Positions 3-22,100 are shown, numbered from the stretch's first letter. The stretch is 64,000 nt of DNA from a virus (IMGVR_UViG_3300027747_003534:64001-128000), one strand, 5' to 3'. Made by a program: numbers and translations. The notes: a model not told the origin generated them from the letters alone.

Positions 3-3000
3 CTACTAGCTCAGTCTGCTAGAATCCAAGGTATTAATAATCTTATCAAAGCTAGATCATTATTTTCTGGATCTGAGACTTCAGTCAGAAAAGGAGAAAC
101 TAACTTTACCGGAGATATGGCAAGAAGAGATCGTAACTTAGTATATAAAGACCAGACCAGAACTCCTGAAAATTTTGAAGAAAGAGAAAATAACGTATCA
201 AGATCAGGACAAGTAAAAACATTAACGCCAGCAGATAATTCTGCAATACCTGGGTCTGGACCAAACGGAGAGCAAACTTCAGATGAGCGAAGAGAAACTT
301 CCAATAGGGCCAGGATGGCTAATGGCCGTGGAAACTCTGCTATTCGTGGCATTGAACTATGGGATACTAATAGGGATGGTAAAATCTCTTTTGAAGAATG
401 GAATCAATTTCGTCCTGAGAAAGAACCCGAACTGCAAAGATTTTTTGGGGCTTCCACATTTGACGCATTAATGGGAGCTTATTCTTCAGCATTAAAAGGC
501 TTGGGTCTTAGGGATAAAAATGCCACAGATAATTTCAAACCTAGAACTCTAAAAGACTATTTTAAAAATATTGATAAAGACAACACCGGATATATCGAAC
601 AACATGAATTCTCAGATATGGTTGGTAAACCACTAGAATATCTTGATATAGAAACAGATCGAGAAGCAAAAGAACTAGGAGATACACTAGGAACACAAAG
701 AGATCCTAGAGGCGCTCAGAAATTAGCCTATGATAAAATAGATAGAACTACCATCTCATCAGTAAAAAATTTATTAAAACAAGATTTTAAGGAATTATAC
801 CCAGTTTCTTTCTCTAAGGCTTCGCACTTCTCAGAAAGAGAAGTAATACAACCACAGATAGATGCTCTTAGAAAAATCACAGGGGTTTCTGAGCTAGATA
901 AGATAAATAAAAGAACAATCTTAGCAAATATAGGGTCTTCCTTAAATAAGGATAATAGTGATTGGGGTCTCTCTCCCAAAGTTGAGGAAAATCTTGGTAA
1001 TGTTATGGTTAAAATTAAGCAAGATTCTTTGCTATTTCCAGGAGTGGTTAATAAGGCATATACTCAAGGTCTTGCTACTCCTCAAGATCTGCTGCATAAC
1101 CCTGATATTAATTACGAGAAGACCCTTAAAAGGTCAGGAATTCCAGAAGACATATTTAAAACCATATGGCAAGACTATAAGCCAGTTTCTAAGTTTGATA
1201 ATCCGAATAGCAAAGACTCCTTAGACAAAATATATAAATTAAATAATGAGCTTAATTCTCAGGAAATAGGCGAAGACAAAGAAAGAACTACAGCAGCAGC
1301 ATTAAGTCAAAAATCAAACGCTAAAAAAAGATCAGCTAAAAAAGAATTAACAAAAAATACTTTAATAGAACAACTTCTCGTTAAAGCGAAATACTTTGAA
1401 CCAGATGTTTATAACAAGTTATGGCGTGGGCAGTATAAAGACTATTACGATGTGCCTGATCCAACTCTTGCTCGACACGTTGATATGTATAACACCCTGA
1501 TACCTTCCGGCGAAACTGGTCGTTTATCAAAGCCATCCGCAGATCAAGAGAAGGAGTATAGAAATAGATTAAAAGATATTAGTAAAAATCCAATTTATGC
1601 TAATAAAGGAATGCTTATCCCTTACCAACCCAGAGGAACTGATACTGTTCCTGCAATGTTGACTCCCGGAGAGTTTGTTATCAATAGAGCGGCCACCCAA
1701 CAAAATTTACCACTGCTACATGCTATTAATAGTGGAGCTAAAACTTATAGTAGTGGTGGAATTGTATATGCTGCTAATGGAGATTTGATAGGATCATCCA
1801 ATAGCTCCTCAAATAGTGATCTATCTAAAATCTCAGCAGTAGCATCTTTAGTTCCTAAAATCTTAAGTAAAGTAAAAGATTCTGATAAGATTAAATCTAA
1901 TCTCGATACTATTAATAATAACGTTATATTAAATCATAAACAAGGCAAAATATTAAACGATAAAATAAGTTTATTAAATAATAAAATTGATATGGGATTA
2001 GGAGATATTCAAGAAAATATTCCTACTGATAATTATTTGTCAAATATTCCTAATTATTTTTCAAATAATTTATCAAGAAGTTCATCATATGGATTGAATC
2101 ATGGGGGAATAGTTTATGCTGCGAATGGGAAGTTAGTAAATTATCAACCACAAGGAACAGATACTATTCCAGCAATGTTGACCCCAGGAGAATTCGTAGT
2201 TAATGCTCGGGCTACTAGTGCAAATCTTCCATTATTACAGACCATAAATAAGAGCAAGGGAGGCATTGCTTATTTACAACAAGGAGGTCTTCCTAATAAT
2301 AGAGATTTTTTAGAAAATAATAGAGATTTACAAAGATTTACAAGTCGTATTGGATTAAAAGCAGCTAGAGATATCATAAATCATAAAGATATGTATGATA
2401 TTTTTAATAATAATATGTTTCATGAAGACTTGGACGTTGATGCAAAAATAGTTGAGAGTAAGAGATATATCGACAGTCATATAACAGATAGGTCAAAAAT
2501 AGCTGCTAGAGAGCTAGTTAAACAAAGAATAAGGCAGAGACAGCGTTATTTAGACCAAATATTTACAGCTAATCGTTTTACCCTTGATGAAATAAGTTTT
2601 GGCGGGAGAGATCGTGAGCTTAGGTATACATTATTTGGAATAGAACTAAAAGAGATTTTAACTACACAATGGCGCAATGCTCAAGGGGAAAACTATAGGT
2701 TACAAGACGTTATCGAAGGAATCAACCCATCTCGCCCACCTTCTTTTTTTAATAATGGCGGAGTAGTTTATGCTCAAGATGGATTTGATCCATCAAAACA
2801 AAGAATGCCTACTTTATTCGATTTGCCCCAAGATTTTAGAAAACCACATAAACCATATAAGCCAGATGTTAAGCCAAAACCAGGATTAGCTGGAGCATCA
2901 ATAGGAGCACCAGAAAAAGTTAGTGCTACCACACAGAGAGCTATCGATAGTAAGGTTTGGGAACAGACACCTCAAGACATTCCCTATTGGTTTGGAACAA

Positions 3001-6000
3001 GAAAAGAATCAGAAACTGAAAGACAACAAAGAGTAATTGAGTACGGCTTGAACGAAAATCTACCTGAATGGTATAAAAATGCTGGAATGGCTTGGCAAAT
3101 GGTCGAAAATATTGCGCAAGGTTGGGCGGGTACCGGAGGAGCAGGTCATCAGCAGCCTAGATTAATGCAACGAGTAAAAGGATCACGAACACCACTAACT
3201 GGACAAAGACCGAACATTCCTGTTCCTGGTTATGGAGCTTCTAACCCTAATACTCTTAATGATTTAACAACATCAAATGTTACTAGACCAATGGTTAGGA
3301 CTGGAGATACTTTAGATAATGCTACTACTGATGCTGGTTTAAGACGCAGAGTCTCGTCGCCAAAAGATGCTCTTCAGAATGCGTCTACAAACAGTATGTC
3401 TAGACCTAAGCCAATATCAAATCAGGATAGTTTTGGTAACGAATCCACTAATGCTGGATCAAACCCAAAGCTACAATTAGCTCCTTTATCATCTAGTTTG
3501 GGAGGAACCACATCAAACTCCAATGTGTCACAGCCTGCTGTACCATCTAGTTCCTCATCCAAAGGTATTCTTGGTAAAATTTTAGAGTATATCAAAAAAC
3601 CTTTTGTAAAGCAACAAACTGATGAAGATCCACGGATGCCAGTATTTATGACAAAGAAACCAGATTCTGTAACTGAAGGAAATATACAGAAATTACTTTC
3701 AGATAGGCAGGTAGGATATACTGGCAGTTCGTTATTAGCAGGTAGAAATGCAAAACCCGGAATGTTAAAAGAAGTAGACAAATATCTGCGAGATGCTGGT
3801 ATAGATCCATCTTCTATGAAATTTGTTGGATCTGGTAGAGAATCGATGGTTTTTGATGCTGGTAATGGAAAAGTATTTAAACTTGGATATACACAAAATC
3901 GTGATGTTCAAAATATTTTAAAGTCTCCTGATTTAGAAGCTTTGTCTTTACCTTCCGATGTTCCAGGCGTAGCAGGATATACAGGAAGACAAAATATAGG
4001 ACCATATACTGTAGGCTTTCAACAAAGAACTCAAACGCTTGATCCAGAAGCTCAAAAACAATTTCAAACCGGCAATGTCGGTGCTGAAATGCAAAAATAT
4101 TTACGAGAAAAGGGGTACGAATGGAAAGACGCTCATCAGGGTAATGTTGGATACGCTACAGATCCGCGGTTTGGTATACCAACACCTATGGGATCATTAC
4201 AGGTTATTGATGGAGATGTTAGACCAATACAGGCGAAACAAAAAGGAGGCATGATATATGCTTCACAAGGAACACTAGTCAACTATCAACCTCGTGGTAC
4301 CGATACAGTGCCAGCGATGCTGACTCCGGGAGAATTTGTTGTTAATGCTCAAGCAACAAGACAAAATCTACCACTATTACAAAGCATCAATAAAAGCAAA
4401 GGAGGGGTAATTTATTCTGCTAATGGAGGTTTAGTAGGATTACTAAGACGAAAAAATGTTAATAGGATGGAAAACAAAGCACAAAGTACTAATGAAAGCA
4501 ATTCTTGGATAGGTGTTAATGGTGATGGGAAGCCTATGGATAAATTTGGCATGCCTATAGATAATTTAATGGATATTTATCCTTCTGATATTATGTTGGT
4601 TAATGCTCAGTCTAGGGAAAAAGCTTTGGAAGATATCCAAGCAAATACTAACTTTGATAAGGTAAAAGATACAGTACAAAAAGCCTCAGTCTTATGGCGA
4701 AAACAAAAATTAAACTTAGATGAAAATAATAATCGCAAAAGTGATAGTGATATTGTCTTAGACGAGCTAATATATCAAATAGCTTTTGAACCTAAAAGAT
4801 TTGATAAAAATAGCTATAGTTCAGATGCCGATGATACCGTTCTTGCGAAAGCAAAAAAGATAATGGAGGAAATCAATGGAACTGGAGGAGCAGTGCCTCC
4901 CGGAGCTGTTCCAAATGCTAATTTGCAGCTAACCAACACACAACTCTTACAAACTCAGAGAGTTAGTGATAGAATTTGGGAAAGAACAAGTTATTTAAAA
5001 CAAATTGTAAATAATACACAAAATGCGATAGATGTCTTAGGCCATAATCAAGCTAATAACGAAAAAAGAAATATTTTTGATGGAACAACTGTAGACGGAA
5101 CATCACAGTTTGACCCAGCAGCCATTGGAATATCTAATACGACAAATAAGCAAGGGACACAAGTCTTACAATCTCAAAATGATTGGGCAAAAAAAGAATT
5201 AGATTATATAAAAGCTGTTCGTGAGGAGATTATGACTCTCTCAACTCCAGAACAAAGAGCTAATTTAGCTCAAATGCCTAGACCGCCAGAAGTATTATAT
5301 GATGAGACAACACCTATCCCAATGAGATTTAATAGAGGTGGCGTTGTTTATGCTCAAGATGGATTTGATGCATCAAAGCTGCCTATTAATAAAAATAAAG
5401 GTGGTATAATTTATGCTTCACAAGGAACACTAGTAAACTATCAGCCTCGCGGCACCGATACTGTTCCTGCTATGCTAACACCAGGAGAATTTGTTGTTAA
5501 TGCTAAGGCTACGTCTAAAAATTTATCATTACTACAATCTATAAATAATGGAGTCCAGGGATATTCTAATGGAGGAGTGATTGATCCTATCTATAGGCCA
5601 AGGGGTGGATATACCCCACCAAGACCACCAAAACAAACATTAGAACAAAGACAACAAGCATACCAAGATCGTAGAGCAGCTGAAAAAACTGCTCGTGAAG
5701 ATAGAGCAACAGCTAGAAAAAATAAAACTACTTCATATGATCAAATGTTAAACGCTAGGGAAGAGGCTTACAGAGCCAACGTAGACGCTAGGGCAGATAA
5801 TAATAGATCTCCATTAGTAAAAATCTTCGAGGAACTAGAAAAACAAGTAAATGCTAATCCAGATAAATTTGAACTAGTTATGCCTGGCTCTGTTAGATCA
5901 GCTCTTGATGAGGATAAAGATGCGAAAGCAAAATCAGAATTCTATGAACAGCATTTTATGTCTTTGTCTCCAGAAGATGTATATAAGGCCGCTAAGGAGA

Positions 6001-6806
6001 TGTACTTAAAAGATCAAAGACAATTTAAATATTTAGAAGGTATTTATAATAGATCTAAACAAGCATTATTTCAATTTAGTAGATATCCTGCAATAGGAGG
6101 TAGAATAGTTGGCACAAGTGGTAAAACTGCCTTAGCAATACTTTCCAAGCAAGTTGAAGCAGCACATGCTCAGGGCTTAGTATTAGATAATGCTTGGAAA
6201 ATTTTAGGTCAAAAACATCCAGAATTTTTAGCCCAAAATAGCAATCGTCAAAATGCTGCTGGCCATGCCTCTGGAGGAATAATTTATGCTAATAATGGAA
6301 TGCTAATTCCTTATCAACCAAGGGGTAGTGATACTGTCCCCGCCATGTTAACGCCCGGAGAGTTTGTAGTCAATAAACAGGCAGCTCAAAATAATTTAGA
6401 TTTATTACAACAAATTAATAGTAAGAAATATAATCAAGGAGGCCATGTAGTCTATAAAGAAGCTGGAGGGCCAATACAACTTAAAAAACCAATATATAGA
6501 GCTAATGGGGGCATGACCGATGAAACTTCTGGAGGAGGCGGTGGTGTATCTAATAATAAAGATATGGGCCTAAATTTTGATGGATTAAGTCAGTTTACAG
6601 CAACATTTGGCAAGTTTATTCAACAACTAAATAGCCTAAAATTACCAGAAGTTATTAATATTCAAGGAAATCATAAAGTTGATGTTGTCATTAACGGAGC
6701 CGGAGCATTACAAGGTATGCAAGAAGGTATTAGAAACATGATTGTGGGAGAAGTTAATAAAGCCATGAGTAGCATAAGCAAACAAACAGATGGAGCAATA
6801 GCATGA
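3..6806 (+). CDS. Tape-measure-like giant virion protein, 5'-partial, with 5 GTDTVPAMLTPGEFV modules, two EF-hands and a kinase-like domain
   Basis: The frame of ORF 117..6806 stays open back to nt 3, so the gene probably starts upstream of the window. GGxxYAxxG and GTDTVPAMLTPGEFVVN motifs are typical of phage tape measure C-terminal regions. It lies directly before the fibre/baseplate-like genes with an ATGA overlap at 6803-6806. Confidence 0.75.
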   Translation, partial: LLAQSARIQGINNLIKARSLFSGSETSVRKGETNFTGDMARRDRNLVYKDQTRTPENFEERENNVSRSGQVKTLTPADNSAIPGSGPNGEQTSDERRETSNRARMANGRGNSAIRGIELWDTNRDGKISFEEWNQFRPEKEPELQRFFGASTFDALMGAYSSALKGLGLRDKNATDNFKPRTLKDYFKNIDKDNTGYIEQHEFSDMVGKPLEYLDIETDREAKELGDTLGTQRDPRGAQKLAYDKIDRTTISSVKNLLKQDFKELYPVSFSKASHFSEREVIQPQIDALRKITGVSELDKINKRTILANIGSSLNKDNSDWGLSPKVEENLGNVMVKIKQDSLLFPGVVNKAYTQGLATPQDLLHNPDINYEKTLKRSGIPEDIFKTIWQDYKPVSKFDNPNSKDSLDKIYKLNNELNSQEIGEDKERTTAAALSQKSNAKKRSAKKELTKNTLIEQLLVKAKYFEPDVYNKLWRGQYKDYYDVPDPTLARHVDMYNTLIPSGETGRLSKPSADQEKEYRNRLKDISKNPIYANKGMLIPYQPRGTDTVPAMLTPGEFVINRAATQQNLPLLHAINSGAKTYSSGGIVYAANGDLIGSSNSSSNSDLSKISAVASLVPKILSKVKDSDKIKSNLDTINNNVILNHKQGKILNDKISLLNNKIDMGLGDIQENIPTDNYLSNIPNYFSNNLSRSSSYGLNHGGIVYAANGKLVNYQPQGTDTIPAMLTPGEFVVNARATSANLPLLQTINKSKGGIAYLQQGGLPNNRDFLENNRDLQRFTSRIGLKAARDIINHKDMYDIFNNNMFHEDLDVDAKIVESKRYIDSHITDRSKIAARELVKQRIRQRQRYLDQIFTANRFTLDEISFGGRDRELRYTLFGIELKEILTTQWRNAQGENYRLQDVIEGINPSRPPSFFNNGGVVYAQDGFDPSKQRMPTLFDLPQDFRKPHKPYKPDVKPKPGLAGASIGAPEKVSATTQRAIDSKVWEQTPQDIPYWFGTRKESETERQQRVIEYGLNENLPEWYKNAGMAWQMVENIAQGWAGTGGAGHQQPRLMQRVKGSRTPLTGQRPNIPVPGYGASNPNTLNDLTTSNVTRPMVRTGDTLDNATTDAGLRRRVSSPKDALQNASTNSMSRPKPISNQDSFGNESTNAGSNPKLQLAPLSSSLGGTTSNSNVSQPAVPSSSSSKGILGKILEYIKKPFVKQQTDEDPRMPVFMTKKPDSVTEGNIQKLLSDRQVGYTGSSLLAGRNAKPGMLKEVDKYLRDAGIDPSSMKFVGSGRESMVFDAGNGKVFKLGYTQNRDVQNILKSPDLEALSLPSDVPGVAGYTGRQNIGPYTVGFQQRTQTLDPEAQKQFQTGNVGAEMQKYLREKGYEWKDAHQGNVGYATDPRFGIPTPMGSLQVIDGDVRPIQAKQKGGMIYASQGTLVNYQPRGTDTVPAMLTPGEFVVNAQATRQNLPLLQSINKSKGGVIYSANGGLVGLLRRKNVNRMENKAQSTNESNSWIGVNGDGKPMDKFGMPIDNLMDIYPSDIMLVNAQSREKALEDIQANTNFDKVKDTVQKASVLWRKQKLNLDENNNRKSDSDIVLDELIYQIAFEPKRFDKNSYSSDADDTVLAKAKKIMEEINGTGGAVPPGAVPNANLQLTNTQLLQTQRVSDRIWERTSYLKQIVNNTQNAIDVLGHNQANNEKRNIFDGTTVDGTSQFDPAAIGISNTTNKQGTQVLQSQNDWAKKELDYIKAVREEIMTLSTPEQRANLAQMPRPPEVLYDETTPIPMRFNRGGVVYAQDGFDASKLPINKNKGGIIYASQGTLVNYQPRGTDTVPAMLTPGEFVVNAKATSKNLSLLQSINNGVQGYSNGGVIDPIYRPRGGYTPPRPPKQTLEQRQQAYQDRRAAEKTAREDRATARKNKTTSYDQMLNAREEAYRANVDARADNNRSPLVKIFEELEKQVNANPDKFELVMPGSVRSALDEDKDAKAKSEFYEQHFMSLSPEDVYKAAKEMYLKDQRQFKYLEGIYNRSKQALFQFSRYPAIGGRIVGTSGKTALAILSKQVEAAHAQGLVLDNAWKILGQKHPEFLAQNSNRQNAAGHASGGIIYANNGMLIPYQPRGSDTVPAMLTPGEFVVNKQAAQNNLDLLQQINSKKYNQGGHVVYKEAGGPIQLKKPIYRANGGMTDETSGGGGGVSNNKDMGLNFDGLSQFTATFGKFIQQLNSLKLPEVINIQGNHKVDVVINGAGALQGMQEGIRNMIVGEVNKAMSSISKQTDGAIA
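1623..6419 (+). repeat. Five dispersed ~36-codon intragenic repeats at 1623-1730, 2142-2249, 4284-4391, 5439-5546 and 6312-6419
   Basis: Translation YQP(R/Q)G(T/S)DT(V/I)PAMLTPGEFV(V/I)N..A...NL.LL..IN occurs five times. Confidence 0.95.
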
Positions 6807-9800
6807 GCTATAATATTACAGATAATTTGGTTATTGGTAGCGGCATTAATCCTGATATAACATTATCACAAACATCGGGAATTAGCACAGTTTTTAATGC
6901 TAATAAGCAAAATATTGATTTTCAAATATCTTCTACTGGTAATTCTAGTCTCACTTATGATGCTTCTACCGGAAGACTGGGAATTAATACTGGTTTGCCA
7001 GACGCTGTCTTACACATAGTTACTCCATGCTCAAAAGATGGCCTAATTATAGAGAGCATTACTAACTGTCCTACCGGAGTCACTTTGTTACTGGTACACA
7101 ATCCACAAACACAGCCAGTAAGTGGCAGTTATCCATCTATTATAAATCTTGCTGGTAGAGATACTAATTATAATGAAATATATTATGGTCAAATATTATC
7201 TAAAATCTTAGACCCAAATACAGGATCAACAAGTGGGGAAATTATTTTTACAGTTGATCAAACTGGTATAAATAAACCTGTTTTTGTAGCTAATTTAGCT
7301 AATGTTACTTTAGGGGGTAATAATTCTGTTTCTGGTTTTTCTTATAATATTGTTGGTAACTATAATGAATTAAGTGGAACTTTATATAATAATATTGGGT
7401 CTCTCAATACTGGTAAAATTAATAGTGGAATAATTATTGGCAATAGTAATATTGTAAACGGAGACGGAGTATTTCTATTTGCTAATAATTCAGTATTTTC
7501 TGGAGTTTCTGGTATAAACGTAGGAAACTCAATTGTTACCAGTGGATCTAATAATACATTATTAGGTAATTTTGTTAATATCACAGGACTGCATAATATT
7601 TTATTGGGTAGTAATAATAATGCTAGTATTTCATCAACCGTTGGCTTGGCTCAAGGGCTAACCGCTTCTGGAATCTCAGGAATAGTTTTGGGCTCTAATG
7701 CTTCTAATATTGGCGATTTTAATATTTATATAGGGAACGACACTTCAGTATCTGGCAGTAATAATAATCTCATAGGTTCATTAGTATATTTAACTGGTAA
7801 TAATAATCTTTCTTATGGTAATCAAAATATAGTTAGCGGAAATAATCTAATATGTATTGGGTCTTATCAAACAGCATCTAATATTAATAGCGGAATTTTT
7901 ATAGGCAATAGAATAGGTTCCAACGATGCTGTTAGATCCATGATTATAGGTATCGGCAACAATAATAATCCTAATCAACAAGGACTGTCTGATAGCATAT
8001 TACTTGGTATTAATAATACCATAAATAGTGGAGGGGTACCAGACAAGCTTTTATTAGTTGGTCAAAATAATATTATAAAAGACATAACTAATTCTTTATT
8101 GGTTGGAAACCAGAACAATGCTAGTGGTTCAATAAATAATACAGTATTCCTTGGCAATACTAATTCAGCAGGATCTAATAGTAATAATAATATTATTATA
8201 GGTATTCTCAACAATCAAACTGGCGCATATATAAATACTGCTGGTAATATTAGTGGTATTGCTAAGGTTATGAATATTCCTCTTAATAACAGTGTTATTG
8301 CTGGTATTAATAATGCTCAATATGGTGGATTATCTAATAATATAGTTGGAAATAAAAACTCAGTATCCGGCTCGAACGACACTGTAATAGGCTCATTCAA
8401 TGATCTGCGTCATTCTTCAAAATCCTATAGTATAGGTAATTCTAACTACATTATTGGAGATAATATTGGTGCAGCAGGGAGCAATTCATTAATCGTTGGT
8501 AAAGACTCTCTTGTTTTTAATAACTCAGATAAACGTATGGATGTTTTTGGTAGTGGTAATATAGTTTTGGGTTATAATCAATTAGCAACTAGCGGGTTGG
8601 TAGTAGGTACCAATAATAAAATATATGGACTAAATAATACTATTTATGGAAGAAATAATACTCTTGGATCTATTGCTCATCCTTTTCTGATGAATGGTTT
8701 ATCTTCATTCAGCATATCTATTCCGTCATTAAATGTTTCTAATAAATATACTGTGGGCGATTTAGCTCTAATTTCTATCCAAAGTCCAGCTTCTACTGGC
8801 AATACATTTATAAGAGAAATATTAAATATTACAGAGAACACTATAGATAATACTACTGTCGTTCAGTTTAGCACTTCTATTGGTGTTGATGCTTCTAATG
8901 GTTATTATTCTATTAATTCTAATTTTGATGATAATAATAGTCCAAATAATACTGTTGTTAGTGGCTTGATTATGCCATACATGGTTGGTGGAGGTGCTGG
9001 AGGTCCAGAACTTAATCCATCATATGGTTGTAATAATATTATAATAGGATCAAATAATAAATATATATATAGTAGTGGTACAGTGATTGGCTTTAACAAT
9101 AATGTATCTGGTGTTAAAAATGTTGTTGTTGGTTATGGTATTAGCGGAATAACAGATAATACATTATATATTGGTACAAATAATTTAAATAAAGTTATTT
9201 TAGATAATGATTTAATAGTATTTAATTCTGGTAAAGTTCAAAGTAATTTTATTGTTAAATCAACAGATAATAATACTTCAATCGTTAATATTGATCTGAA
9301 TAATAATAGATTTGGAATTAATACCGATAGACCAACAGCTGATTTATCTGTAAGTGGATTAACTAGCACTAGTACAATTAGAGTAGGTTTTTCTTCACCT
9401 GATCAGTATGTTTTAACTTCTAATGTAAATGGCTATGGAACATGGCAATTACCAGTAAGGTTATCAGGATTAGATACTGGCCTAATGGTTAAAATTAATA
9501 ATAAAGTCGGTAGTGGTATTTCTAATATTTATTTTGATCCTAATGGTGAATCATTAAATTTTAATCTAGATAATAATAATGGATTAATAATAAATCCAAC
9601 AGGGATTTTTGTTAATGATGGTGGCAATCTTTATACAATGAGAATCAGAGGGAGCGGTGGTGATGATTTTGCTAAAGTATTATTTAATACTAATCTTGGT
9701 AATAATAGAATAGATTTCTTTAATGTAAGTGGAAATTCTGGAGTCTTTAATAATTTAAGCTTAGCTAGTGGTTTGAGTTTGCCAATAAGTCTTACTGGTA

Positions 9801-11191
9801 CATTCCTTTATGTGAATTCTAGTGGTAAACTATTGTCCTATCCTTCTAGAGCATGCTCTGTACTATATGCCAGTAGTAATTCTTGGGCTACTGGAGATAC
9901 TTCTTTCAGATGGTTTAATAATCAATCAACCTTAGCCCTAGGAGCTACTGGCATTGTTAGTTATGATCTATTAGCAACTAATACTAATGATACAAATTAT
10001 AACATATTATTAAGTTCTAATAATCAAATTGATACAATATTTAATAATCGAGGATTAGGTAATAAATTTTCAGTTATTAATTCTGGAGCACTAAATACCA
10101 GAAGAGGGTTACATATTAGCCCCGCTAGTGGCCAAGTAGCTATTAATGTTATTCCAGATACTTTTAATAGTGTTATTAATCAGGCTCATTTATATGTTGA
10201 AGGTAAAACATGGACTAATAGTTTAAGAATAGGTCCAGGTATTACAACATCTGGCTTATATCTAAGAGTAGATAATGCTGGTAATGTGATCCCTAGCACT
10301 TTAGATCTAACAACACAATTTAGTGGTAATTATCCTATTACTACCACTTATACATCACTTGGTCAAAATAATGCTTTTAGAGTTGATATAGGTTTACAAA
10401 ATGTTGATAGAGCAGGTAATTCTTTGGGAGTTAATAACGATGGTCAGTCTTTAATATGGGATGGAGCCAAATGGAACTTAAATAAAGGCATTATAGCTCC
10501 ACAAAGCTCATGGTTATCTAATGATGACAAAACATTAAAGGGTTTGCAGTTTGGTTATAAGTCCAAGGTAAATTATACGTACCATACTCATGCATTTGCT
10601 GCTGGTTCTTTTTTACATGGATCTAATTTATATGATGGATCATCACAATTTACTCAACACTATCTAAGATGTCGAACTCCTGCTTCTGGAGGAAACATTG
10701 TTGCATTAACAACTAATTTTGCAAAAGACAGCGTGACTACTGAAAATCAGTACAATACTATAAGTCTTTCTAATGTGAATGGATATAATTATGATAATGT
10801 TTGGACATATAATATTTTTGTGTCCGTATTATGGCAAAATGGAACTAATAGCAGTAATCCTGCTGTGGGTGATAGACAAGCTGCTGGTATGAGTATTCAA
10901 GGATGTATTTATAGATCAGCTGATGGAACGATATTTACAAAACTTGGTCAAGAAAAAATAAATATATTTGCTACAGGAGTTGGTGTGGTTGGAATGCCTG
11001 CGGGAATGGGAGTTGGAACATATTTAGATAATGATGGTCAAACTAATGTTCCTAGATTAAGCATACGAGCAACAGGAGTTGATGGAAAAACAGCCCTATG
11101 GACAGCAACTGCACAAATTCACCAATTAAATCATCCGGCAGGGTCAGTTGACGGATCTCCATTCGGATATAATTTATATGGTAGTGTATAA
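6803..11191 (+). CDS. Tail fibre / adhesin-like protein with YadA-head-like beta-roll repeats
   Basis: 1462 aa, rich in N, G and S. Many (I/V)G..N repeats at ~14-aa spacing. Fibre-type motifs GRLGINTGLPDAVLHI and NRFGINTDRPTADLSV. Confidence 0.65.
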   Translation: MSYNITDNLVIGSGINPDITLSQTSGISTVFNANKQNIDFQISSTGNSSLTYDASTGRLGINTGLPDAVLHIVTPCSKDGLIIESITNCPTGVTLLLVHNPQTQPVSGSYPSIINLAGRDTNYNEIYYGQILSKILDPNTGSTSGEIIFTVDQTGINKPVFVANLANVTLGGNNSVSGFSYNIVGNYNELSGTLYNNIGSLNTGKINSGIIIGNSNIVNGDGVFLFANNSVFSGVSGINVGNSIVTSGSNNTLLGNFVNITGLHNILLGSNNNASISSTVGLAQGLTASGISGIVLGSNASNIGDFNIYIGNDTSVSGSNNNLIGSLVYLTGNNNLSYGNQNIVSGNNLICIGSYQTASNINSGIFIGNRIGSNDAVRSMIIGIGNNNNPNQQGLSDSILLGINNTINSGGVPDKLLLVGQNNIIKDITNSLLVGNQNNASGSINNTVFLGNTNSAGSNSNNNIIIGILNNQTGAYINTAGNISGIAKVMNIPLNNSVIAGINNAQYGGLSNNIVGNKNSVSGSNDTVIGSFNDLRHSSKSYSIGNSNYIIGDNIGAAGSNSLIVGKDSLVFNNSDKRMDVFGSGNIVLGYNQLATSGLVVGTNNKIYGLNNTIYGRNNTLGSIAHPFLMNGLSSFSISIPSLNVSNKYTVGDLALISIQSPASTGNTFIREILNITENTIDNTTVVQFSTSIGVDASNGYYSINSNFDDNNSPNNTVVSGLIMPYMVGGGAGGPELNPSYGCNNIIIGSNNKYIYSSGTVIGFNNNVSGVKNVVVGYGISGITDNTLYIGTNNLNKVILDNDLIVFNSGKVQSNFIVKSTDNNTSIVNIDLNNNRFGINTDRPTADLSVSGLTSTSTIRVGFSSPDQYVLTSNVNGYGTWQLPVRLSGLDTGLMVKINNKVGSGISNIYFDPNGESLNFNLDNNNGLIINPTGIFVNDGGNLYTMRIRGSGGDDFAKVLFNTNLGNNRIDFFNVSGNSGVFNNLSLASGLSLPISLTGTFLYVNSSGKLLSYPSRACSVLYASSNSWATGDTSFRWFNNQSTLALGATGIVSYDLLATNTNDTNYNILLSSNNQIDTIFNNRGLGNKFSVINSGALNTRRGLHISPASGQVAINVIPDTFNSVINQAHLYVEGKTWTNSLRIGPGITTSGLYLRVDNAGNVIPSTLDLTTQFSGNYPITTTYTSLGQNNAFRVDIGLQNVDRAGNSLGVNNDGQSLIWDGAKWNLNKGIIAPQSSWLSNDDKTLKGLQFGYKSKVNYTYHTHAFAAGSFLHGSNLYDGSSQFTQHYLRCRTPASGGNIVALTTNFAKDSVTTENQYNTISLSNVNGYNYDNVWTYNIFVSVLWQNGTNSSNPAVGDRQAAGMSIQGCIYRSADGTIFTKLGQEKINIFATGVGVVGMPAGMGVGTYLDNDGQTNVPRLSIRATGVDGKTALWTATAQIHQLNHPAGSVDGSPFGYNLYGSV

Positions 11192-14172: not shown

Positions 14173-17100
14173 ATGAGTTTAGTACAGACACAGTTTTTAG
14201 GATGTAGTATAACAAAATTTAACTTTAATTTAGCATGGGGGGAGGACAATAGCCAAGCTAATATAACAGTAGTTTATGATGATTCTAAAAGTAGTTCTAG
14301 TGTAGCTAACCAAGCTGATAGCGTTAAAACTAGTTTAATAAATAGAATGTCATCTAATGGAGATATTCCTACTCAAAATAGTTATATTATATCTCAAAGC
14401 ATACCATCAGATATGTCTGTATCGGCTAAAAAAAGAAGGTGGCCTACTAATAGTACAGTTTCTACAACAAGCGAAGAGGCTGATCCTAATTTCATAGGAC
14501 TAAACTATGATATAATAGGATGTCCAGCTAGATTTAAATATGATACTAATTTAGAATTTGGTGGATTGATCAAAAGTTGGAAAACAGTAGGATCAGTATC
14601 TGGAAAAGATATGTATGAAGTTACTTTACAAGGATACTCTACATTACTAAATAATAGCTATTTAATAATTAATAATTATATAGGATCTATTTCAGATTTT
14701 GTTGATAGTGATTGGGCGTCTCCTATGATAGTTGATACCGTTGGTGGTGGAACCCCAACTTTGTATCAAGGAAATATACCAAATGTCTTTAATGTTTATG
14801 GTTCCTATGAATCTGCTGTTTTTGGTAGTTCATTAAAAAATGACAGAGGAATGTCAGCTAAACAAATATATAATTTTTTAAGAAATTCATTCTCTTCTCA
14901 AAATCAATATAATCCTTATGGTGGACTAGTTACTAAAACAGTCGCTAATTTTGGTGGATCAATAATTGGTACATCTTCACTTCAGGATCAAGGACTATGT
15001 CGAGATATATCATGCGCTGATTCTATACAAAGAAGTTTATTTTCTATTGATATATCAGATATTCCAATACCTCCTGATACTTTATATATCCCTAATTCCG
15101 TTATAAGTATTGGAGAATTTATAAGAATATTATGCGAAGGCGCCGGGTGTGATTATTCTGTGATTTTTATTAATAGCACATCTGGAAATTTCACAGGAAC
15201 AATTAAAATAAAAACTGTTTCGAGAAGAAGCATACCATCACCGAATGCATTAAAAATTCAGATCAATAATTTAATAAATCAAAATAGTTCTAAGATATCT
15301 AGCTATTCTTACGGTCAAGAAATTTCAGATAATCCATTAAGATTAATGTATATAGGAGGAAAGCAAAAAAGACTTTATCAAGCTTTGTCTACTAATTTAT
15401 CTCAAACTCAAACAACAATGGTATATGATCCATATAAAGGTGTTTTTATGGGTTTGCCAGCTGCTACAGTAAATCAATATATGGTTCCAGATCGTAAATT
15501 TACAAGACGTTTTAATTCTTGGACTGAAGGAGTAGGATATGTTGGACAACAGGCAACAGCCACAGACTTTTATTCGACTGTAAATTTGGGCAGCGTCTAT
15601 TCAAGATGGAAGAATAATTATGAAGGAGTGGATAGTAGTTCAAATTCTTCAACTTCCAATTCTAATTATGCTATATACAATGATATTATAAGTCCTTATT
15701 TTGGTATGAATGGAGATACTTATAGTGATAGTGGAGCTGGTAATTTTAGCGGCACAGAAAATAATTATTCTTATTCTGATGCCAGAAAAGTATACTGGGA
15801 TAAAGAAACAAATCAATTAATGATAGTATTTATTAAAAATGACATAACTAGAGTTTTATCTAATCCATATTATGATGCTAGTTCATTTATAGTTATTGAA
15901 AATGAATTACGAGCAGCAGGAGCAGGTTTTGAATCATGGTTTACTTATTGTTTTGATAATTTCTTCTCAACAAATATAGAATCTCTAATGAAAGGATATT
16001 TTAGTAGTACATATGGTGGAAATTCTTACTTTAAAGCAATATCGATTATTAAATGGAATAGCATAGGAAAACAGAGCGGATCCATGAGTTTTAATAATCA
16101 TCCTGGAAATATAAATATTGATAATGCTAATGCATACGTTAGAGCTTTCTATCAAGATCTAAATAAAGTTTGGGAAATTATGAAAAAAGTTCATGATACA
16201 TATTATGGTAAATCATATATGGTTAGGACTCCATCAGTTCTATATTATCAAGACCCAGAGTCTGGTCAATATTTTTATAATTGGCAAATATCAACAGATG
16301 GAGCTTGGGAAGAAAATGGTACATTTATTGATGACACTATGGTTATTGGTTCTACAGTAGCTGATACTTTTAGGGATGAGGTAGGAAAGATAAAACCTAT
16401 TTTAGGCTTTAATGCTAATGCAGATAAATCAACAAAGGATGATTGGCTAGATACTCAACTTCAAGCATCTGCAGCTGGGGGCATGGGAGCTATGCATGCT
16501 GTAATTCAAAAAGAATATAGAAAATTTACATCAAGAGCAGAACAAAATAAATTCTTTTATTTTCCATTAGAACATAACTTGAGTCCAAGTGATTATACCT
16601 ATATACAATATGCTAGTCCATCAGTACAAAATCAAGGATATAGTTTTCCTTCTGTTAACGATGGAAGTTTTACAACTCCAAAAGGAGACAGTATTCCACA
16701 GGGCTATTCTTACAAAATGTATGTAGCAGCATCAGCTCAGGAGCAATTAGTTTATATAGATGGTACTCCTAGGGTAGTAATGTCTATAGATCAACCAATT
16801 AAATTAGGAGGTGGTAAAAATGAATGTGAAAGATCCTTAGTTTTTACTATGTTACATGATGCTATTTTAGCAAGCAAATATAATAGAACATTTAAATCTG
16901 GTTTTGACTCTACTAAAATTCGTGATGGAGCATTATTATCTTGGTTTTTGTGCGGAAATGCTAGGATTTCTAATGATATAAATACTACAGTTAGTGTTAA
17001 TGATAGTGGGCCTAACATTCCAATAGAACCTAAAGCAACATGTCCAGCATTTGCTGCTATTCCTATTCAATTTAATTTGGCTACTTATGGACCATGGATA

Positions 17101-19191
17101 GACAATCCTGGAAAAGCTGGTTTATACGGAGCAGGTACTATTAATAACTTAGCCGGACCTGTTAATGTTAAGGAAGATCCTGAATTGGTTCCATGGAATT
17201 TTGGAGGTATGGAGAATTTGGATTCGTATGTTTGTAAAACAATAGATAATGATGCTGCTTATCAACAAGTTCATGAAAATGGAGAATTAGGGATAGTAGG
17301 AATAGATACTAGTTTAGGATTGGTAGGAGATGTGTTGGTCGCTGGTGGTCCTTTAATATCTAATATTGTTGTTAATATTGCTGAAGATGGTATAACATCT
17401 AATTATACGCTAAGAACATATACTAGAAAATTAGGATTTTTTAATAAAGACAACACCGATAGGTTCAAGCAGCTTGCACTAGATAATTTTAAACAAAAAA
17501 AAGCTTTGAATGATTCTATTAATACAGCACAAAATGTATTAAAGGCTAATTTTGCAAAAACTATGGAGACTATTAGTAGTAGTGATATTCCTAAACAATT
17601 AAAATGGAGTCCTGGTAAAATTCTATTTGGGGCAAACAGGACTCATATTCATCCGGATTCTTCAGCTGTAATAGCCGGCTATAGTCCAGATTGGCATATG
17701 GCTCCTTATGGGCAAGCAAATACTAATCCAGTTGATTTGCCAAGATATGTAGGAGATATTGGGCTATATGAAACTGATGAAGCTCCAAGAGAACTTTTAA
17801 CAGACTATGATAGAAAATCTATTATGAGCTTAGATGGTATATTATCTCCTATTTCTTTTTATCCTAGTCCTTATGGATCAACATATAATATTACTAAATA
17901 TCCTAGAAGTAGATGTCCTATATGTTTAGGAGCAGGAACGTATTCTTATAAAAAATTAAATAACCCAACAATTAATAACTCAAGCTCATTTAGCACAGTA
18001 ACTAATAGCATTGAAGTTGTATCAAGCGTAGCTTGTGGATTTTGTGAACTAGACGATGAAAAAACTAAAAATAAATATATTGGGGCCTCTCCAAAAGAAA
18101 CTACTCCTCCATTTGTTATAGCGAGTGGTAATGATCTGGAAATTATTTCTAGAAATAGTATGTCTGCTTTGAGCGGAATTAGTGGTAATCCTATTATCAA
18201 TTATTCAACACTAAATCCAGTTTTATTAATGAGTGGAGAATTTGGTTGTGAACAAAATAGACAAAGCGGGGATACTGTTCCTCATTGTATAGATATGGTA
18301 TCAAATGGAATAGCTCCTCCATTTGGTGATGACAGTTTAAAACTATCCTATAGTGCTAATATTAATCATTTTTATAATCCTATAGACTATAATTATAATA
18401 ATTACTGCTCTCAACGAGGTATAACAAAACCAAGCTATACTGCAGTAGCTGGTTATTCTAATACCGAGAATTTACCGGCTAATAATATGAGATTTTTTGG
18501 CTTACGGGGGCCAGTAATGGTTCATGGTTGGGGTTATGATACCGAAGGATATCCTGTACCGAATGCTTCTGGAGAATTTTTACTAGATAGTAATGGAGCT
18601 ATTAAAAAAGACTCAGACAACAAGCCCCTGTATAAAAACCAAACACAAAATGTTGATGGCTCTTGGACGAAACCTTATAGAGAACATAAATTTTTTAAAG
18701 GTTGGGGTCAAATGCCAGGAACTTGGCCTGTTGGTCCAATAGATCTTAGATGGGATGCTAAGGCCAAAGTATGGACTGTTGGAGCTAATTATAAAAATGT
18801 ATGGATTAAAATAGAAAATGATTTAGTAAATAAACAACCGTCTAGAGGAGAAATAATAAGTGATCTAAATAATAACCCTTTGCCTAGTGGTCTTAGAAAA
18901 TTAGTTTTTGTAAAAGATGAATTGCAAATTAATCCCGCCCCAAGAGGAGCTCAAATTTATTGTAAATATGATAGTGATAGTGGTTTTTATCAACCTATTT
19001 ATAATAGACCATTTATAACATCAGGAATTATACAGGGAGGAACTACTGTACAATTATATCAAGTATTTAGTAGTGGCCAGATCACTTACACTACAGCATT
19101 TGATAACCCTATAGGCTTTAGTGTATCTCAGGGAAATAAAGGAGTTTTTGTTTATATAGATAGTGCGTGGGTTTTACAGTCACATAGTTAG
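14173..19191 (+). CDS. Large tail/baseplate structural protein with CxxCxGxG...CxxC insertion
   Basis: 1672 aa uninterrupted ORF tightly packed in the tail module. Function inferred from context only. Confidence 0.5.
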   Translation: MSLVQTQFLGCSITKFNFNLAWGEDNSQANITVVYDDSKSSSSVANQADSVKTSLINRMSSNGDIPTQNSYIISQSIPSDMSVSAKKRRWPTNSTVSTTSEEADPNFIGLNYDIIGCPARFKYDTNLEFGGLIKSWKTVGSVSGKDMYEVTLQGYSTLLNNSYLIINNYIGSISDFVDSDWASPMIVDTVGGGTPTLYQGNIPNVFNVYGSYESAVFGSSLKNDRGMSAKQIYNFLRNSFSSQNQYNPYGGLVTKTVANFGGSIIGTSSLQDQGLCRDISCADSIQRSLFSIDISDIPIPPDTLYIPNSVISIGEFIRILCEGAGCDYSVIFINSTSGNFTGTIKIKTVSRRSIPSPNALKIQINNLINQNSSKISSYSYGQEISDNPLRLMYIGGKQKRLYQALSTNLSQTQTTMVYDPYKGVFMGLPAATVNQYMVPDRKFTRRFNSWTEGVGYVGQQATATDFYSTVNLGSVYSRWKNNYEGVDSSSNSSTSNSNYAIYNDIISPYFGMNGDTYSDSGAGNFSGTENNYSYSDARKVYWDKETNQLMIVFIKNDITRVLSNPYYDASSFIVIENELRAAGAGFESWFTYCFDNFFSTNIESLMKGYFSSTYGGNSYFKAISIIKWNSIGKQSGSMSFNNHPGNINIDNANAYVRAFYQDLNKVWEIMKKVHDTYYGKSYMVRTPSVLYYQDPESGQYFYNWQISTDGAWEENGTFIDDTMVIGSTVADTFRDEVGKIKPILGFNANADKSTKDDWLDTQLQASAAGGMGAMHAVIQKEYRKFTSRAEQNKFFYFPLEHNLSPSDYTYIQYASPSVQNQGYSFPSVNDGSFTTPKGDSIPQGYSYKMYVAASAQEQLVYIDGTPRVVMSIDQPIKLGGGKNECERSLVFTMLHDAILASKYNRTFKSGFDSTKIRDGALLSWFLCGNARISNDINTTVSVNDSGPNIPIEPKATCPAFAAIPIQFNLATYGPWIDNPGKAGLYGAGTINNLAGPVNVKEDPELVPWNFGGMENLDSYVCKTIDNDAAYQQVHENGELGIVGIDTSLGLVGDVLVAGGPLISNIVVNIAEDGITSNYTLRTYTRKLGFFNKDNTDRFKQLALDNFKQKKALNDSINTAQNVLKANFAKTMETISSSDIPKQLKWSPGKILFGANRTHIHPDSSAVIAGYSPDWHMAPYGQANTNPVDLPRYVGDIGLYETDEAPRELLTDYDRKSIMSLDGILSPISFYPSPYGSTYNITKYPRSRCPICLGAGTYSYKKLNNPTINNSSSFSTVTNSIEVVSSVACGFCELDDEKTKNKYIGASPKETTPPFVIASGNDLEIISRNSMSALSGISGNPIINYSTLNPVLLMSGEFGCEQNRQSGDTVPHCIDMVSNGIAPPFGDDSLKLSYSANINHFYNPIDYNYNNYCSQRGITKPSYTAVAGYSNTENLPANNMRFFGLRGPVMVHGWGYDTEGYPVPNASGEFLLDSNGAIKKDSDNKPLYKNQTQNVDGSWTKPYREHKFFKGWGQMPGTWPVGPIDLRWDAKAKVWTVGANYKNVWIKIENDLVNKQPSRGEIISDLNNNPLPSGLRKLVFVKDELQINPAPRGAQIYCKYDSDSGFYQPIYNRPFITSGIIQGGTTVQLYQVFSSGQITYTTAFDNPIGFSVSQGNKGVFVYIDSAWVLQSHS

Positions 19192-19198
19192 GTTATCA

Positions 19199-22100
19199 AT
19201 GAGTAGTTGTTACATATTCAATAAATCATTATTAGAAAGTGTTAATTATAGTCAAGCTACTATTAATACCACAGCGTTATCTGCACTAATACCTGCTTTT
19301 GATAGCAGTACTAGTGGACTTTGGTTACCTATCATTATATCTTCTTCAACATTATCAGATGTTGATTTTTTAATACAACCAAAAAGTAATCCTTCACAAG
19401 TATCATTCGATCCCACAAACTGTACAGATGCTAGTAGCTATGATTATGACACATTACAATTAGATGCTTCTTTTAATTGTTCATATTGTAATAATTTTTT
19501 GACACCAGATTATAAGGCAACTTGGAATCTGACAGATGCCGATGGTGCCTCCAAGGGTCCTTTTACATCTGATTGTTCAAGTGGGGCCTGTGATACAAGA
19601 ATGAGGAAAGATGATTATTTACAAAAAATACCAATACTGAACCAAAATTATTTGAATAAATTTTTTGATTTCAAGTATCTTAAACAATTCCCAGCAGCAT
19701 CAAATCCTGGATTAGGTTTTGGTTCATTTATAACATTTCCTCAAAATTCTTTAACTAGCATATTTTCCCAATCTCCACAACTAATAATAGATTGGAGAAT
19801 AAAAGAAACTATTGATGAAATACCATACGATTTATCAACCTCTCAATATAATTCACAGTATGATCATGACAAAGCTTATAATAAAGCCAAATATTTATCT
19901 CAAACATGTGGTAATTTTATACATAGAAGTTCTTTAAATGAATCAGAATCAAATATTAATAAATTACTACCAGATGTTGATAACTTTATAACTCCATATG
20001 GTTTTGATAAAGATACTTACCATAATATTTTTATTAAAACAAAAAAAGTAGCATCTTATTGGAAATGGAATTATAATTCTGGTGTTTTATGCTGGTATAG
20101 ATATTTTGATACAAATAAAACTTCGGATACTAGACCAATAAAAGGTGTTGATTTATATATTTCTCCTGGAGATGTTTTTTATGCAACGAATGACGGACCA
20201 GAACCAAATAATACTATAACAGAATTTGATAGTGCTTCAAATGCAATTAAACCATGTCCCTCCGGATTAAAAATTATAAAAGCATCAGGAGTAGCTGAAA
20301 TTATTCCATCAGGATCAGCATTTACCTACATATCTGCTAATATATATTCTAAATTTAGGTCTATTTATAATAGAATAAATAAAGCTGTGAGCGCTGATGG
20401 CTCTAGTAAAACAGTACAACAAAAATTTGATTTGGCGGCTTTGTTGGCAACAGCTCCAGAATATGATGAAATAACAGTTGATTTAACAAAAAGGAATGCA
20501 TCATATTCATATATAATTAATAATTATTTTCAAATTTCCGGATTAAATATAGATATGTTATCTGGTACTGAGTATGGATCAGTCGGTAAACTTAACTATA
20601 TTAAAAACTCTGGAGATTTAATTAATACATTAGCAAATAAATATGGGGCCTATCTATGGTGTCCTCATAATACCACATCTACTATACAATTATCTAATAA
20701 TATTAATCATCAATGTTTAATAGATTTAGATTTCGACGTTGTTGCTTCAATATCTGATGTGAAAATGAGCTCAAATACTTGTACGCCAACAACAGACTGT
20801 ACCGCTAATACATTGCAAAAGAATTTTAGCTATTCTCAAAAGTTTGTTGTAGGAAATGTCACATTTGAATCTCGTTTAAATACAGGTACCCAATATAAAG
20901 CTGTTTGTAAAAATAATGCTATGGTAAAAACAAATAGTATTCAAACAGCAGGGTTACTATTAAATAGTAGTACAATAAAAGAGGTTCCCTATAATAGTGG
21001 TTGTTATACTTTTTCAGATAATTATCCAAGAATACTCGTAAATGGACAAACTCCTGCAAATAGCTGTTGTAATAACTATAATGATTCGGATAACTATCCA
21101 TGTAATTTTTGTGATCCAGATAGTACGTATTATTTACCAAATGTCAAGGCAAATAAGATATGCACAGAATATACTGGTAATGACAGCTGGTGCGATCAAA
21201 GATCTGCTTTTGGAGATAGGCCCGCTAGGAATATTCAAAACAATACCTTATATTATAAACGGTCTTATCCTGCTGCTGCATTTAATCCGCATCTTGACTA
21301 TGTTGCTTTTCATCATCAAGGAGGAGTATTTTTTAAAAATAACTTATTTGGTGACAACATTAGCGGAACAACAGCATTCGGTAGTAACTCATTATTTAAT
21401 GATACCAATGGAGGTATTTGTAAGCTAGAATTTACAACTAGTAATGTTGGTATTAAGATATATTCTTTAAAAATAGAAAAATTAAGAGGTAGCTCATCAG
21501 ATAGCGCTGGTTGTAGAGCATTCCCCATATCTAATAAATGTAAATGTTTTAATATGTTAAAGGTGACTGATTTTCCTTATAGATGCGGTTCTTCACAAAT
21601 AACATATGGAGCTGGTAGTATATATACCCCTAATCTTTCTACACAATTTAGTCCACCAGTTAAAGCCTATGGCGGATATTCATTAAATGATATTAATAAA
21701 TTGTTAGGAGGAGGAGAAATTTCAAGTCAAATTGCTGCTCTGAAAAAAGAAATTAATAATTTAAGCGAAACTATAAAATTTATGGAATTAGCTGGATTAT
21801 CAATAGATAAAGATGGAACAACTCTTGAGTCATATAAAAATGATAGAACATCAAAAAGAAGTACATTAAATGGCCTAACTCAAGCCTTAGCTGAATTTAG
21901 AATTCCCGGCCACCCTGAACCAGAAAATATTTTATCTTCAGCAAGTAAATATATTGATCCTATTTACCCATATGGGAAAAGTAGATCCGTAACAGCTACA
22001 TTAAATAATTATGTTACAACATATTATAATATAACTTTACCATCTTATAATACTGTTCATTCAGATATTTGGGCTGAAATTATAGAAGATATAGATTTAT

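Follow-up and report, generated by a model that had tools for sequence, protein, structure and literature searches.

A giant phage tape measure protein as a mosaic of unrelated units set between repeated modules related to lambda gpH

Tape measure proteins (TMPs) occupy the lumen of the phage tail and are expelled into the host before the DNA. They are usually viewed as rulers that at times carry one cell-wall enzyme. An open reading frame (ORF) at positions 3-6806 of a 64,000-nucleotide stretch of virus DNA encodes part of a TMP in which a conserved module recurs between unrelated segments. A search of its own genome placed this stretch, hereafter the window, at bases 64001-128000 of a 161,520-bp IMG/VR virus record (IMGVR_UViG_3300027747_003534). 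All window coordinates given below refer to the plus strand.

The frame has no 5' end inside the window. Together with its upstream part it totals 7,795 codons, running from an ATG at genome position 47422, with an AGGA nine bases 5' of it, to a TGA at 70806. This gives a protein of 7,794 aa, whose start lies 16,579 nt upstream of the window and whose C-terminal 2,267 aa, the last 29%, are encoded within it. The 7,794 codons are uninterrupted by a stop at 35% GC. An earlier sequence-only reading of the window had called the product a TMP, and the complete protein bears this out. PF10145 (PhageMin_Tail) scores 77.3 bits (cut-off 33.2) at residues 265-469, outside the window; the N-terminus is also matched by seven PHROG families named 'tail length tape measure', and relatives carry the source name 'TP901 family phage tail tape measure protein'. 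The protein is thus a TMP of the TP901/PhageMin_Tail type, which we refer to as the giant TMP. The virus is an uncultured phage, probably with a non-contractile tail; searches of the genome for Phage_sheath_1 and for the T4 gp19 tube protein returned no match.

The recurring element is a module of about 70 aa that consists of a GG arm, a core of a β-hairpin and a helix (DTVPAMLTPGEFV...L..IN) and a second GG arm. Five modules had been noted in the window, and all five are confirmed, their PAMLTPGEFV cores lying at nt 1650, 2169, 4311, 5466 and 6339; the positions first given for them are those of the YQPRGTD part, 27 nt before the core. Five is an undercount for the protein, because the ORF continues past the 5' edge of the window. 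The giant TMP has eight strong copies, starting at residues 3064, 4130, 5106, 6053, 6226, 6940, 7325 and 7616, as well as a degenerate ninth at 599-672. Motif, alignment and profile evidence define module 4 (1578-1796, giant residues 6053-6125), module 5 (2097-2300, 6226-6293) and module 6 (4239-4442, 6940-7007). Module 7 (5394-5618, 7325-7399) and the final module 8 (6267-6482, 7616-7687) are defined by motif, profile and AlphaFold2 (AF2) prediction. In the AF2 model of window residues 1798-2267, built from 62 sequences, both modules adopt the hairpin-and-helix core with a predicted local distance difference test score (pLDDT) of about 86, and their GG arms score below 50. A Foldseek search of this region against the PDB gave no match at E ≤ 0.001, and a VIA-wide fold search returned generic helical hairpins only (Z ≤ 7.1). 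The prediction of a module homotrimer (three copies, own alignment) scored 0.01, which is evidence neither way.

The eight copies are 56-83% identical to a reference copy over 72 aa, share 26 invariant columns and reach individual scores of 114-123 bits with a profile of their own, far beyond chance. Across 85 diverse copies from IMG/VR relatives, G31, E32 and N51 are invariant and D22, V24, P25, A26, L28, P30, V34 and L47 nearly so. At the DNA level, copies within the giant ORF are only about 67% identical, with the differences concentrated at synonymous positions. This indicates that the copies are old and individually conserved rather than the result of recent duplications. A module copy is also 72-94% identical to its positional counterpart in relatives and 63-78% identical to its paralogs. 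These figures bear on the trivial explanation that the giant frame is a mis-assembly in which several genes were fused through the repeated module. Assemblers can be misled by repeats, but the module copies are too diverged at the DNA level to be collapsed. Furthermore, the identical protein has been recorded from three contigs, and dozens of independent relatives share the same layout, with a conserved N-terminal core, C-terminal tail and neighbouring genes. We therefore regard such an artefact as highly improbable.

Between the N-terminal core and the C-terminal end, roughly 7,000 aa are divided into about 13 unrelated units. Besides the modules, these units are bounded by a shorter joint, GGxIxKFxxGG, which occurs five times in the first third of the giant TMP (residues 903, 1081, 1513, 1699 and 1915). 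Across relatives we counted 133 occurrences of this joint outside modules and none in shuffled sequences. In the window, the looser pattern GGxxY[AKSL] finds exactly ten GG motifs, where about ten had been reported. Two GG motifs at 2757-2789 and 5337-5369 are not part of a module and share the same 11 residues, GGVVYAQDGFD, about 860 aa apart; one divides a cassette (C, below) and the other lies 21 aa ahead of module 7. The inter-module segments, which we call cassettes, do not resemble each other at E ≤ 1e-5, as the sequence-only reading had stated.

Five cassettes fall in the window. The window part of cassette A (3-1577, giant residues 5180-6052) contains a pair of EF-hands at nt 363-623. 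They pass the Pfam cut-offs as EF-hand_1 (35.3 bits, cut-off 25.4; window protein residues 121-136 and 183-207), EF-hand_5 (31.8, cut-off 25.9) and EF-hand_6 (31.4, cut-off 25), and they have two canonical 12-residue loops, DTNRDGKISFEE and DKDNTGYIEQHE. Cassette B (1797-2096) is a Ser/Asn-rich stretch of 100 aa. Cassette C (2301-4238) comprises a small N-terminal unit, one of the GGVVYAQDGFD motifs, a Pro/Ser/Thr-rich linker and, at 3564-4238, a unit discussed below. Cassette D (4443-5393, 317 aa) belongs to no recognisable family, has no PDB sequence match and has a low language-model feature score of 0.82. Cassette E (5619-6266, 216 aa) is predicted to be an all-helical bundle (AF2 pLDDT 85-94). 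Outside the window, two stretches match ADPrib_exo_Tox (PF03496, 47 bits, cut-off 23). These ADP-ribosyltransferase (ART)-like stretches each lie in their own GG-bounded unit, at giant residues 903-1081 (L009:2707-3243) and 1513-1699 (L009:4537-5097). Pfam at E ≤ 0.1 recovered no HAD phosphatase or PD-(D/E)xK domain from the N-terminal part.

The unit at the end of cassette C had been described as having a kinase fold, which we could not substantiate. It contains a Gly-rich loop with VxK, a catalytic-type D-x4-N motif and an IDG with the metal-binding Asp, all three of which are conserved between the giant TMP and the relatives P0079, P0047 and P0054. Its language-model features score 0.91-0.92 to viral clusters named as kinases, including Kinase-PolyVal, and it shares 151-164 features with them, where true members typically share 170. 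It had no Pfam match at E ≤ 1, no PDB sequence match, no stand-alone homologs and no relatives from IMG/VR or JGI metagenome scans. The AF2 model, made from a three-sequence alignment, has a pLDDT of 35 and is unusable. We therefore describe 3564-4238 as a putative kinase-like cassette at the level of motifs.

To place this architecture among other phages, we searched the module profile against 1.84 billion cluster representatives. This identified 11,137 protein clusters at E ≤ 1e-3, of which 656 reached E ≤ 1e-30. As the latter score exceeds what one module can reach, at least 656 clusters have more than one copy. The relatives compared here are the best 150 clusters, all metagenomic and mostly of 3,000-7,900 aa. 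They contain two to nine modules each, with a bimodal spacing of about 200-400 and 900-1,200 aa, and they differ in inter-module content. Three parts of the giant TMP are conserved among them, namely the N-terminal 600 or so residues (in about 110 of the 150), a Pro-poor block at residues ~2218-3061 (about 95 of the 150) and the last 107 aa (54 of the 150). Relatives with collinear and conserved sequence between the modules would have spoken against the sequence-only reading, and they do not show this pattern. Instead, the window cassettes recur in one to seven of the 150 relatives, with cassette B matching a single one, and some recurrences are non-collinear. The kinase-like cassette, for example, is placed in the first third of P0047 and P0054, not near the end.

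The points at which similarity between relatives starts and stops coincide with the joints. Taking the internal ends of high-scoring segment pairs over all pairs, a module is no more than 10-12 aa away from 52-70% of the breakpoints, where 10-11% would be expected, and breakpoints are enriched four- to five-fold at the short GG joints. Compared with P0155 (7,246 aa), similarity extends over giant residues 1823-4199, restarts at 5102 and restarts again at 7322; the skipped unit, 4204-5101, is complete, with a module on either side. Units of a cassette and its module are likewise present or absent as a whole between relatives. The diversity of this content is high, as 170 inter-module segments from 76 IMG/VR loci formed 71 clusters, 50 of which were singletons. 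The suggestion that the modules serve as the joints of a mosaic thus holds, and exchange of cassettes at the joints is supported by these sequence comparisons. A dedicated mechanism may not be needed for recombination at the modules, which could instead arise through selection of those junctions that are viable.

Selection on the cassettes was assessed against L013, the nearest relative for which DNA was available. The ratio of nonsynonymous to synonymous substitution rates (dN/dS) is 0.13-0.25 for the large cassettes (0.25 for cassette A, which is 78% identical in L013) and 0.46 for cassette E. Values for the modules are 0.08-0.25. Judged by these ratios, the cassettes are under purifying selection. 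The synonymous rate varies by block, being 0.48 in cassette A and 0.7-1.2 elsewhere. Such unevenness is expected of a mosaic, and it points to a more recent exchange of cassette A.

These values bear on the possibility that the giant TMP is nothing but the ruler of an exceptionally long tail. The modules would then be periodic structural nodes, for instance where TMP chains touch one another or the tube, and the cassettes fast-evolving filler that counts for its length and not for its sequence. Several observations are consistent with this. TMP length varies about four-fold among relatives while the neighbouring genes remain conserved and collinear (the TMPs concerned span ~2,000-7,800 aa; L090, for example, has a TMP of 4,808 aa next to an upstream gene of 85% identity). 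Most cassettes lack a recognisable domain, giant residues 2001-3000 are proline-poor and enriched in helix formers, and cassette E is all-helical. In addition, the 5,002-aa TMP of Thermus phage P23-45 gives a tail of 800 nm (PMC10770324). On the other hand, filler needs no exchange of unrelated sequences as intact units, and the 4-9% proline found in much of the array is incompatible with a single long helix. Considering that the large cassettes are under purifying selection and that the array includes globular types of domain (the ART, EF-hand and kinase-like units), we think it improbable that the protein is a ruler alone.

The module itself connects the giant TMP to cultured phages. A narrow profile made from the eight copies of the giant TMP had no match in the PDB. 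A broad profile made from the 85 diverse copies aligned to residues 744-785 of lambda gpH (hhalign probability 92.3%, E = 5.5e-7), and with hmmsearch it matched two PDB chains, 8iyk_H (lambda gpH 733-791, E = 2e-4) and 8zdo_S (mycobacteriophage Douge gp16, E = 5e-14). The latter has two copies, at 964-1030 and 1411-1472. By profile similarity, the module is homologous to lambda gpH 733-791. Using a divergent module as a tblastn query, we found it in 704 cultured-phage records, mainly Mycobacterium and Gordonia phages, in at most three places per record. One of these, the 2,109-aa TMP of Gordonia phage Yeezy, has three modules, and its SLT transglycosylase domain, recognised by Pfam at 1511-1601, is located between the first and the second. 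A module of this kind had been said to occur usually once per TMP, which is true of lambda gpH; cultured actinophage TMPs have one to three. The whole window protein had no match by blastn and tblastn against 50,697 phage records. One module copy also occurs in the cyanomyoviruses S-SM2 (GU071095.1, 7680-7811) and P-TIM68 (KM359505.1, 7762-7884), in a gene annotated as 'putative bacteriophage-related transmembrane protein' or hypothetical, and the module is therefore not confined to the TMPs of siphophages.

Structures of the lambda and Douge tails resolve these TMPs only near their C-termini, where gpH 818-849 is bound to gpI (PMC12617516) and gp16 1658-1699 to the hub (PMC13033339). The module region of gpH was not resolved by cryo-EM (PMC12617516). 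In the giant TMP, the last module is followed by a C-terminal tail of 107 aa and the stop codon (6483-6806), which is predicted to form two helices and has a dN/dS of 0.12. Nearly all relatives likewise end in 100-180 aa beyond their final module. By analogy with the bound segments of gpH and gp16, this is presumably the end that docks to the hub.

Lambda gpH is cut in a glycine-rich stretch to give gpH* and gpHC (PMC12617516), and the segment homologous to our module lies directly downstream of that stretch. This analogy is the support for the earlier idea that the modules could be sites of processing or docking. The modules or their GG arms may accordingly be processing sites, in which case the tail lumen would hold about a dozen separate proteins to be released singly into the host. 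The GG arms are predicted to be disordered and hence accessible, the module is more conserved across the 85 copies than a passive linker would need to be, and single domains, such as each ART-like unit, are bracketed by short GG joints. Against this, the 7,794 aa contain no HExxH motif and no peptidase family in Pfam scans, and the genome has no match to Prok-JAB, Peptidase_C39 or Peptidase_S78. The analogy is also loose, as the cut site and the protease of lambda are themselves unknown (PMC12617516), and sequence data are unable to show cleavage. We consider a cleaved polyprotein unlikely, if a serious contender. A broader form of the idea, to which we give a similarly tentative place, is that the gpH-type module is a self-contained release signal, acting through cutting or uncoupling, which would let long-tailed phages, in hundreds of environmental lineages, fill the tail lumen with about a dozen separately released, freely exchangeable proteins. 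If true, this would amount to virion-borne effector delivery built on a TMP, and it would account for the maturation of gpH to gpH* and gpHC, for which an explanation has long been missing.

The explanation that we favour, and think probable, is that of a mosaic TMP with exchangeable, selected units between gpH-type modules, in which the ruler also serves to carry a changeable set of ready-made proteins. The N-terminal 600 or so residues are an ordinary TP901/PhageMin_Tail-type core, and the last 180 or so, consisting of the final module and the conserved two-helix tail, would plug into the baseplate hub as in the solved phages. The units and the two kinds of joint, five short and eight full, make up everything between these ends, with related phages gaining, losing and swapping blocks of a unit and its joint. 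The joints are most likely flexible, structurally constrained linkers that keep the units separable. As a TMP enters the host before the DNA does, its units would be carried in too, reaching the cell envelope or the cytoplasm at infection. Those that can be identified are the two ART-like units, the EF-hand pair and the kinase-like unit. A location in the lumen, delivery to the host and effector roles of the units are suggested by the biology of TMPs and by published TMP-enzyme fusions, and we regard effector delivery as plausible.

Several points weigh against this explanation. A lumen of about 4 nm would leave little room for three or six chains of 7,794 aa with their domains folded, unless the tail were very long or the domains were stored unfolded. 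For three chains in a 4-nm lumen, we estimate a length of at least ~0.25-0.5 µm if they are compact and ~1.2 µm if they are fully helical, so that an unusually long tail is predicted in either case. The presence of the cassettes in the virion or the host is argued from analogy rather than from direct evidence. Genes for a tail tube, sheath, Dit and hub were not firmly identified in Pfam and PHROG searches of the neighbours and the genome; the neighbouring genes had no firm family match, and the only hint was a Dit_like score of 15 bits, under its cut-off. Both ART-like units keep the STS and ExE motifs but have a Ser (LYSG) at the position of the expected catalytic Arg, which makes activity uncertain; they may be inactive or use another residue. 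Most cassettes of the giant TMP itself have no Pfam match, and among 60 representative cassettes of relatives (34.7 thousand aa) 59 had none, the sole match being an EF-hand. The label 'effector' therefore fits a minority of the units. The proposal of effector cargo in the sequence-only reading accordingly finds partial support, in the two ART-like units, the EF-hand pair, the kinase-like unit at the level of motifs and the confidently modelled helical bundle of cassette E. Finally, breakpoints could fall at the modules because only those stretches are conserved and tolerant of junctions.

Known systems resemble parts of this architecture. Lambda gpH shares the homologous module, GG-rich flanks and a short C-terminal tail, but its 853 aa include a single copy and carry no enzyme, whereas the giant TMP has eight and a degenerate one with unrelated cassettes between them. 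Douge gp16 and Yeezy gp18, actinophage TMPs with embedded peptidoglycan hydrolases, have two to three module copies, and the SLT domain between two Yeezy modules represents the same architecture on a small scale. These proteins are 1,700-2,100 aa long and have one identifiable cell-wall enzyme. The P23-45 protein gp96 is a 5,002-aa fusion of a TMP and an RNA polymerase (Chaban et al. 2024, PMC10770324), and thus establishes that a giant TMP is able to deliver a catalytic cargo, here an enzyme meant for the inside of the host. Compared by description only, it differs in that its single polymerase is N-terminal and no repeated joints or exchangeable array are described.

Proteins with effector domains offer further comparisons. 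Polyvalent proteins are giant chains of disparate effector domains, including ARTs and kinases, which are proposed to enter the host along with the DNA (Iyer et al. 2017, PMC5512222). The giant TMP also has several unrelated domains of effector type, with the kinase-like one recognised by motifs. Polyvalent proteins are described as having other anchors and embedded Zn-metallopeptidases that serve their processing, whereas the giant TMP is anchored by its TMP core and lacks HExxH; the paper describing them makes no mention of TMPs (PMC5512222). TMP-related effectors of contractile injection systems, such as Sle1 (PMC13277306), likewise combine a TMP-derived carrier with an exchangeable functional domain and are packaged in a tail-like tube. 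They belong to bacterial systems, have one functional domain per protein and have no reported repeated joints. Unlike in polymorphic toxins (Rhs/CdiA), the variable parts of the giant TMP are internal and both ends are conserved, and the gene that follows is a conserved tail gene of 1,462 aa rather than a small immunity gene.

Earlier work had described single enzymes embedded in TMPs, the fusion in P23-45 and polyvalent proteins. In our literature search, no paper described gpH-type joints that recur in a TMP and delimit swappable cassettes, in actinophages or elsewhere. The giant TMP is among the largest examples of a large and undescribed family, and it is a ruler that is mostly payload, as about 7,000 of its 7,794 residues are unrelated, selected units that are fenced by a conserved joint and reshuffled in relatives. 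If the units reach the host, the tails of many uncultured phages would be injectors of variable sets of proteins (ARTs, kinase-like and Ca-binding proteins and unknown folds), which would matter for counter-defence and for the takeover of the host. A testable role also follows for the conserved part of lambda gpH that is missing from the tail structures. Gordonia phage Yeezy and mycobacteriophage Douge, with two to three joints, are tractable models.

The 1,462-aa gene downstream of the giant TMP (6803-11191) overlaps its stop codon by 4 nt and is kept beside the TMP in relatives, being 79% identical in L013, 56% in L090 and 37-39% in L017, L020 and L022. PHROG and Pfam searches returned no family for it. 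Further 3' are two other very large ORFs of the tail region, at 14173-19191 (1,672 aa) and 19163-25999 (2,278 aa), for which PHROG and Pfam likewise gave no match. Upstream of the window, the structural block contains another giant ORF of 4,126 aa (L007:2848-15228, genome 22848-35228), amid collagen-like and fibre genes. A collagen-repeat tail fibre protein of 1,049 aa is encoded at L006:13299-16448, with very strong PHROG matches (E = 3e-88), and several fibre-like genes (L006:5915-6808 and L008:5706-6701) have a conserved N-terminal adaptor of about 50 aa in common.

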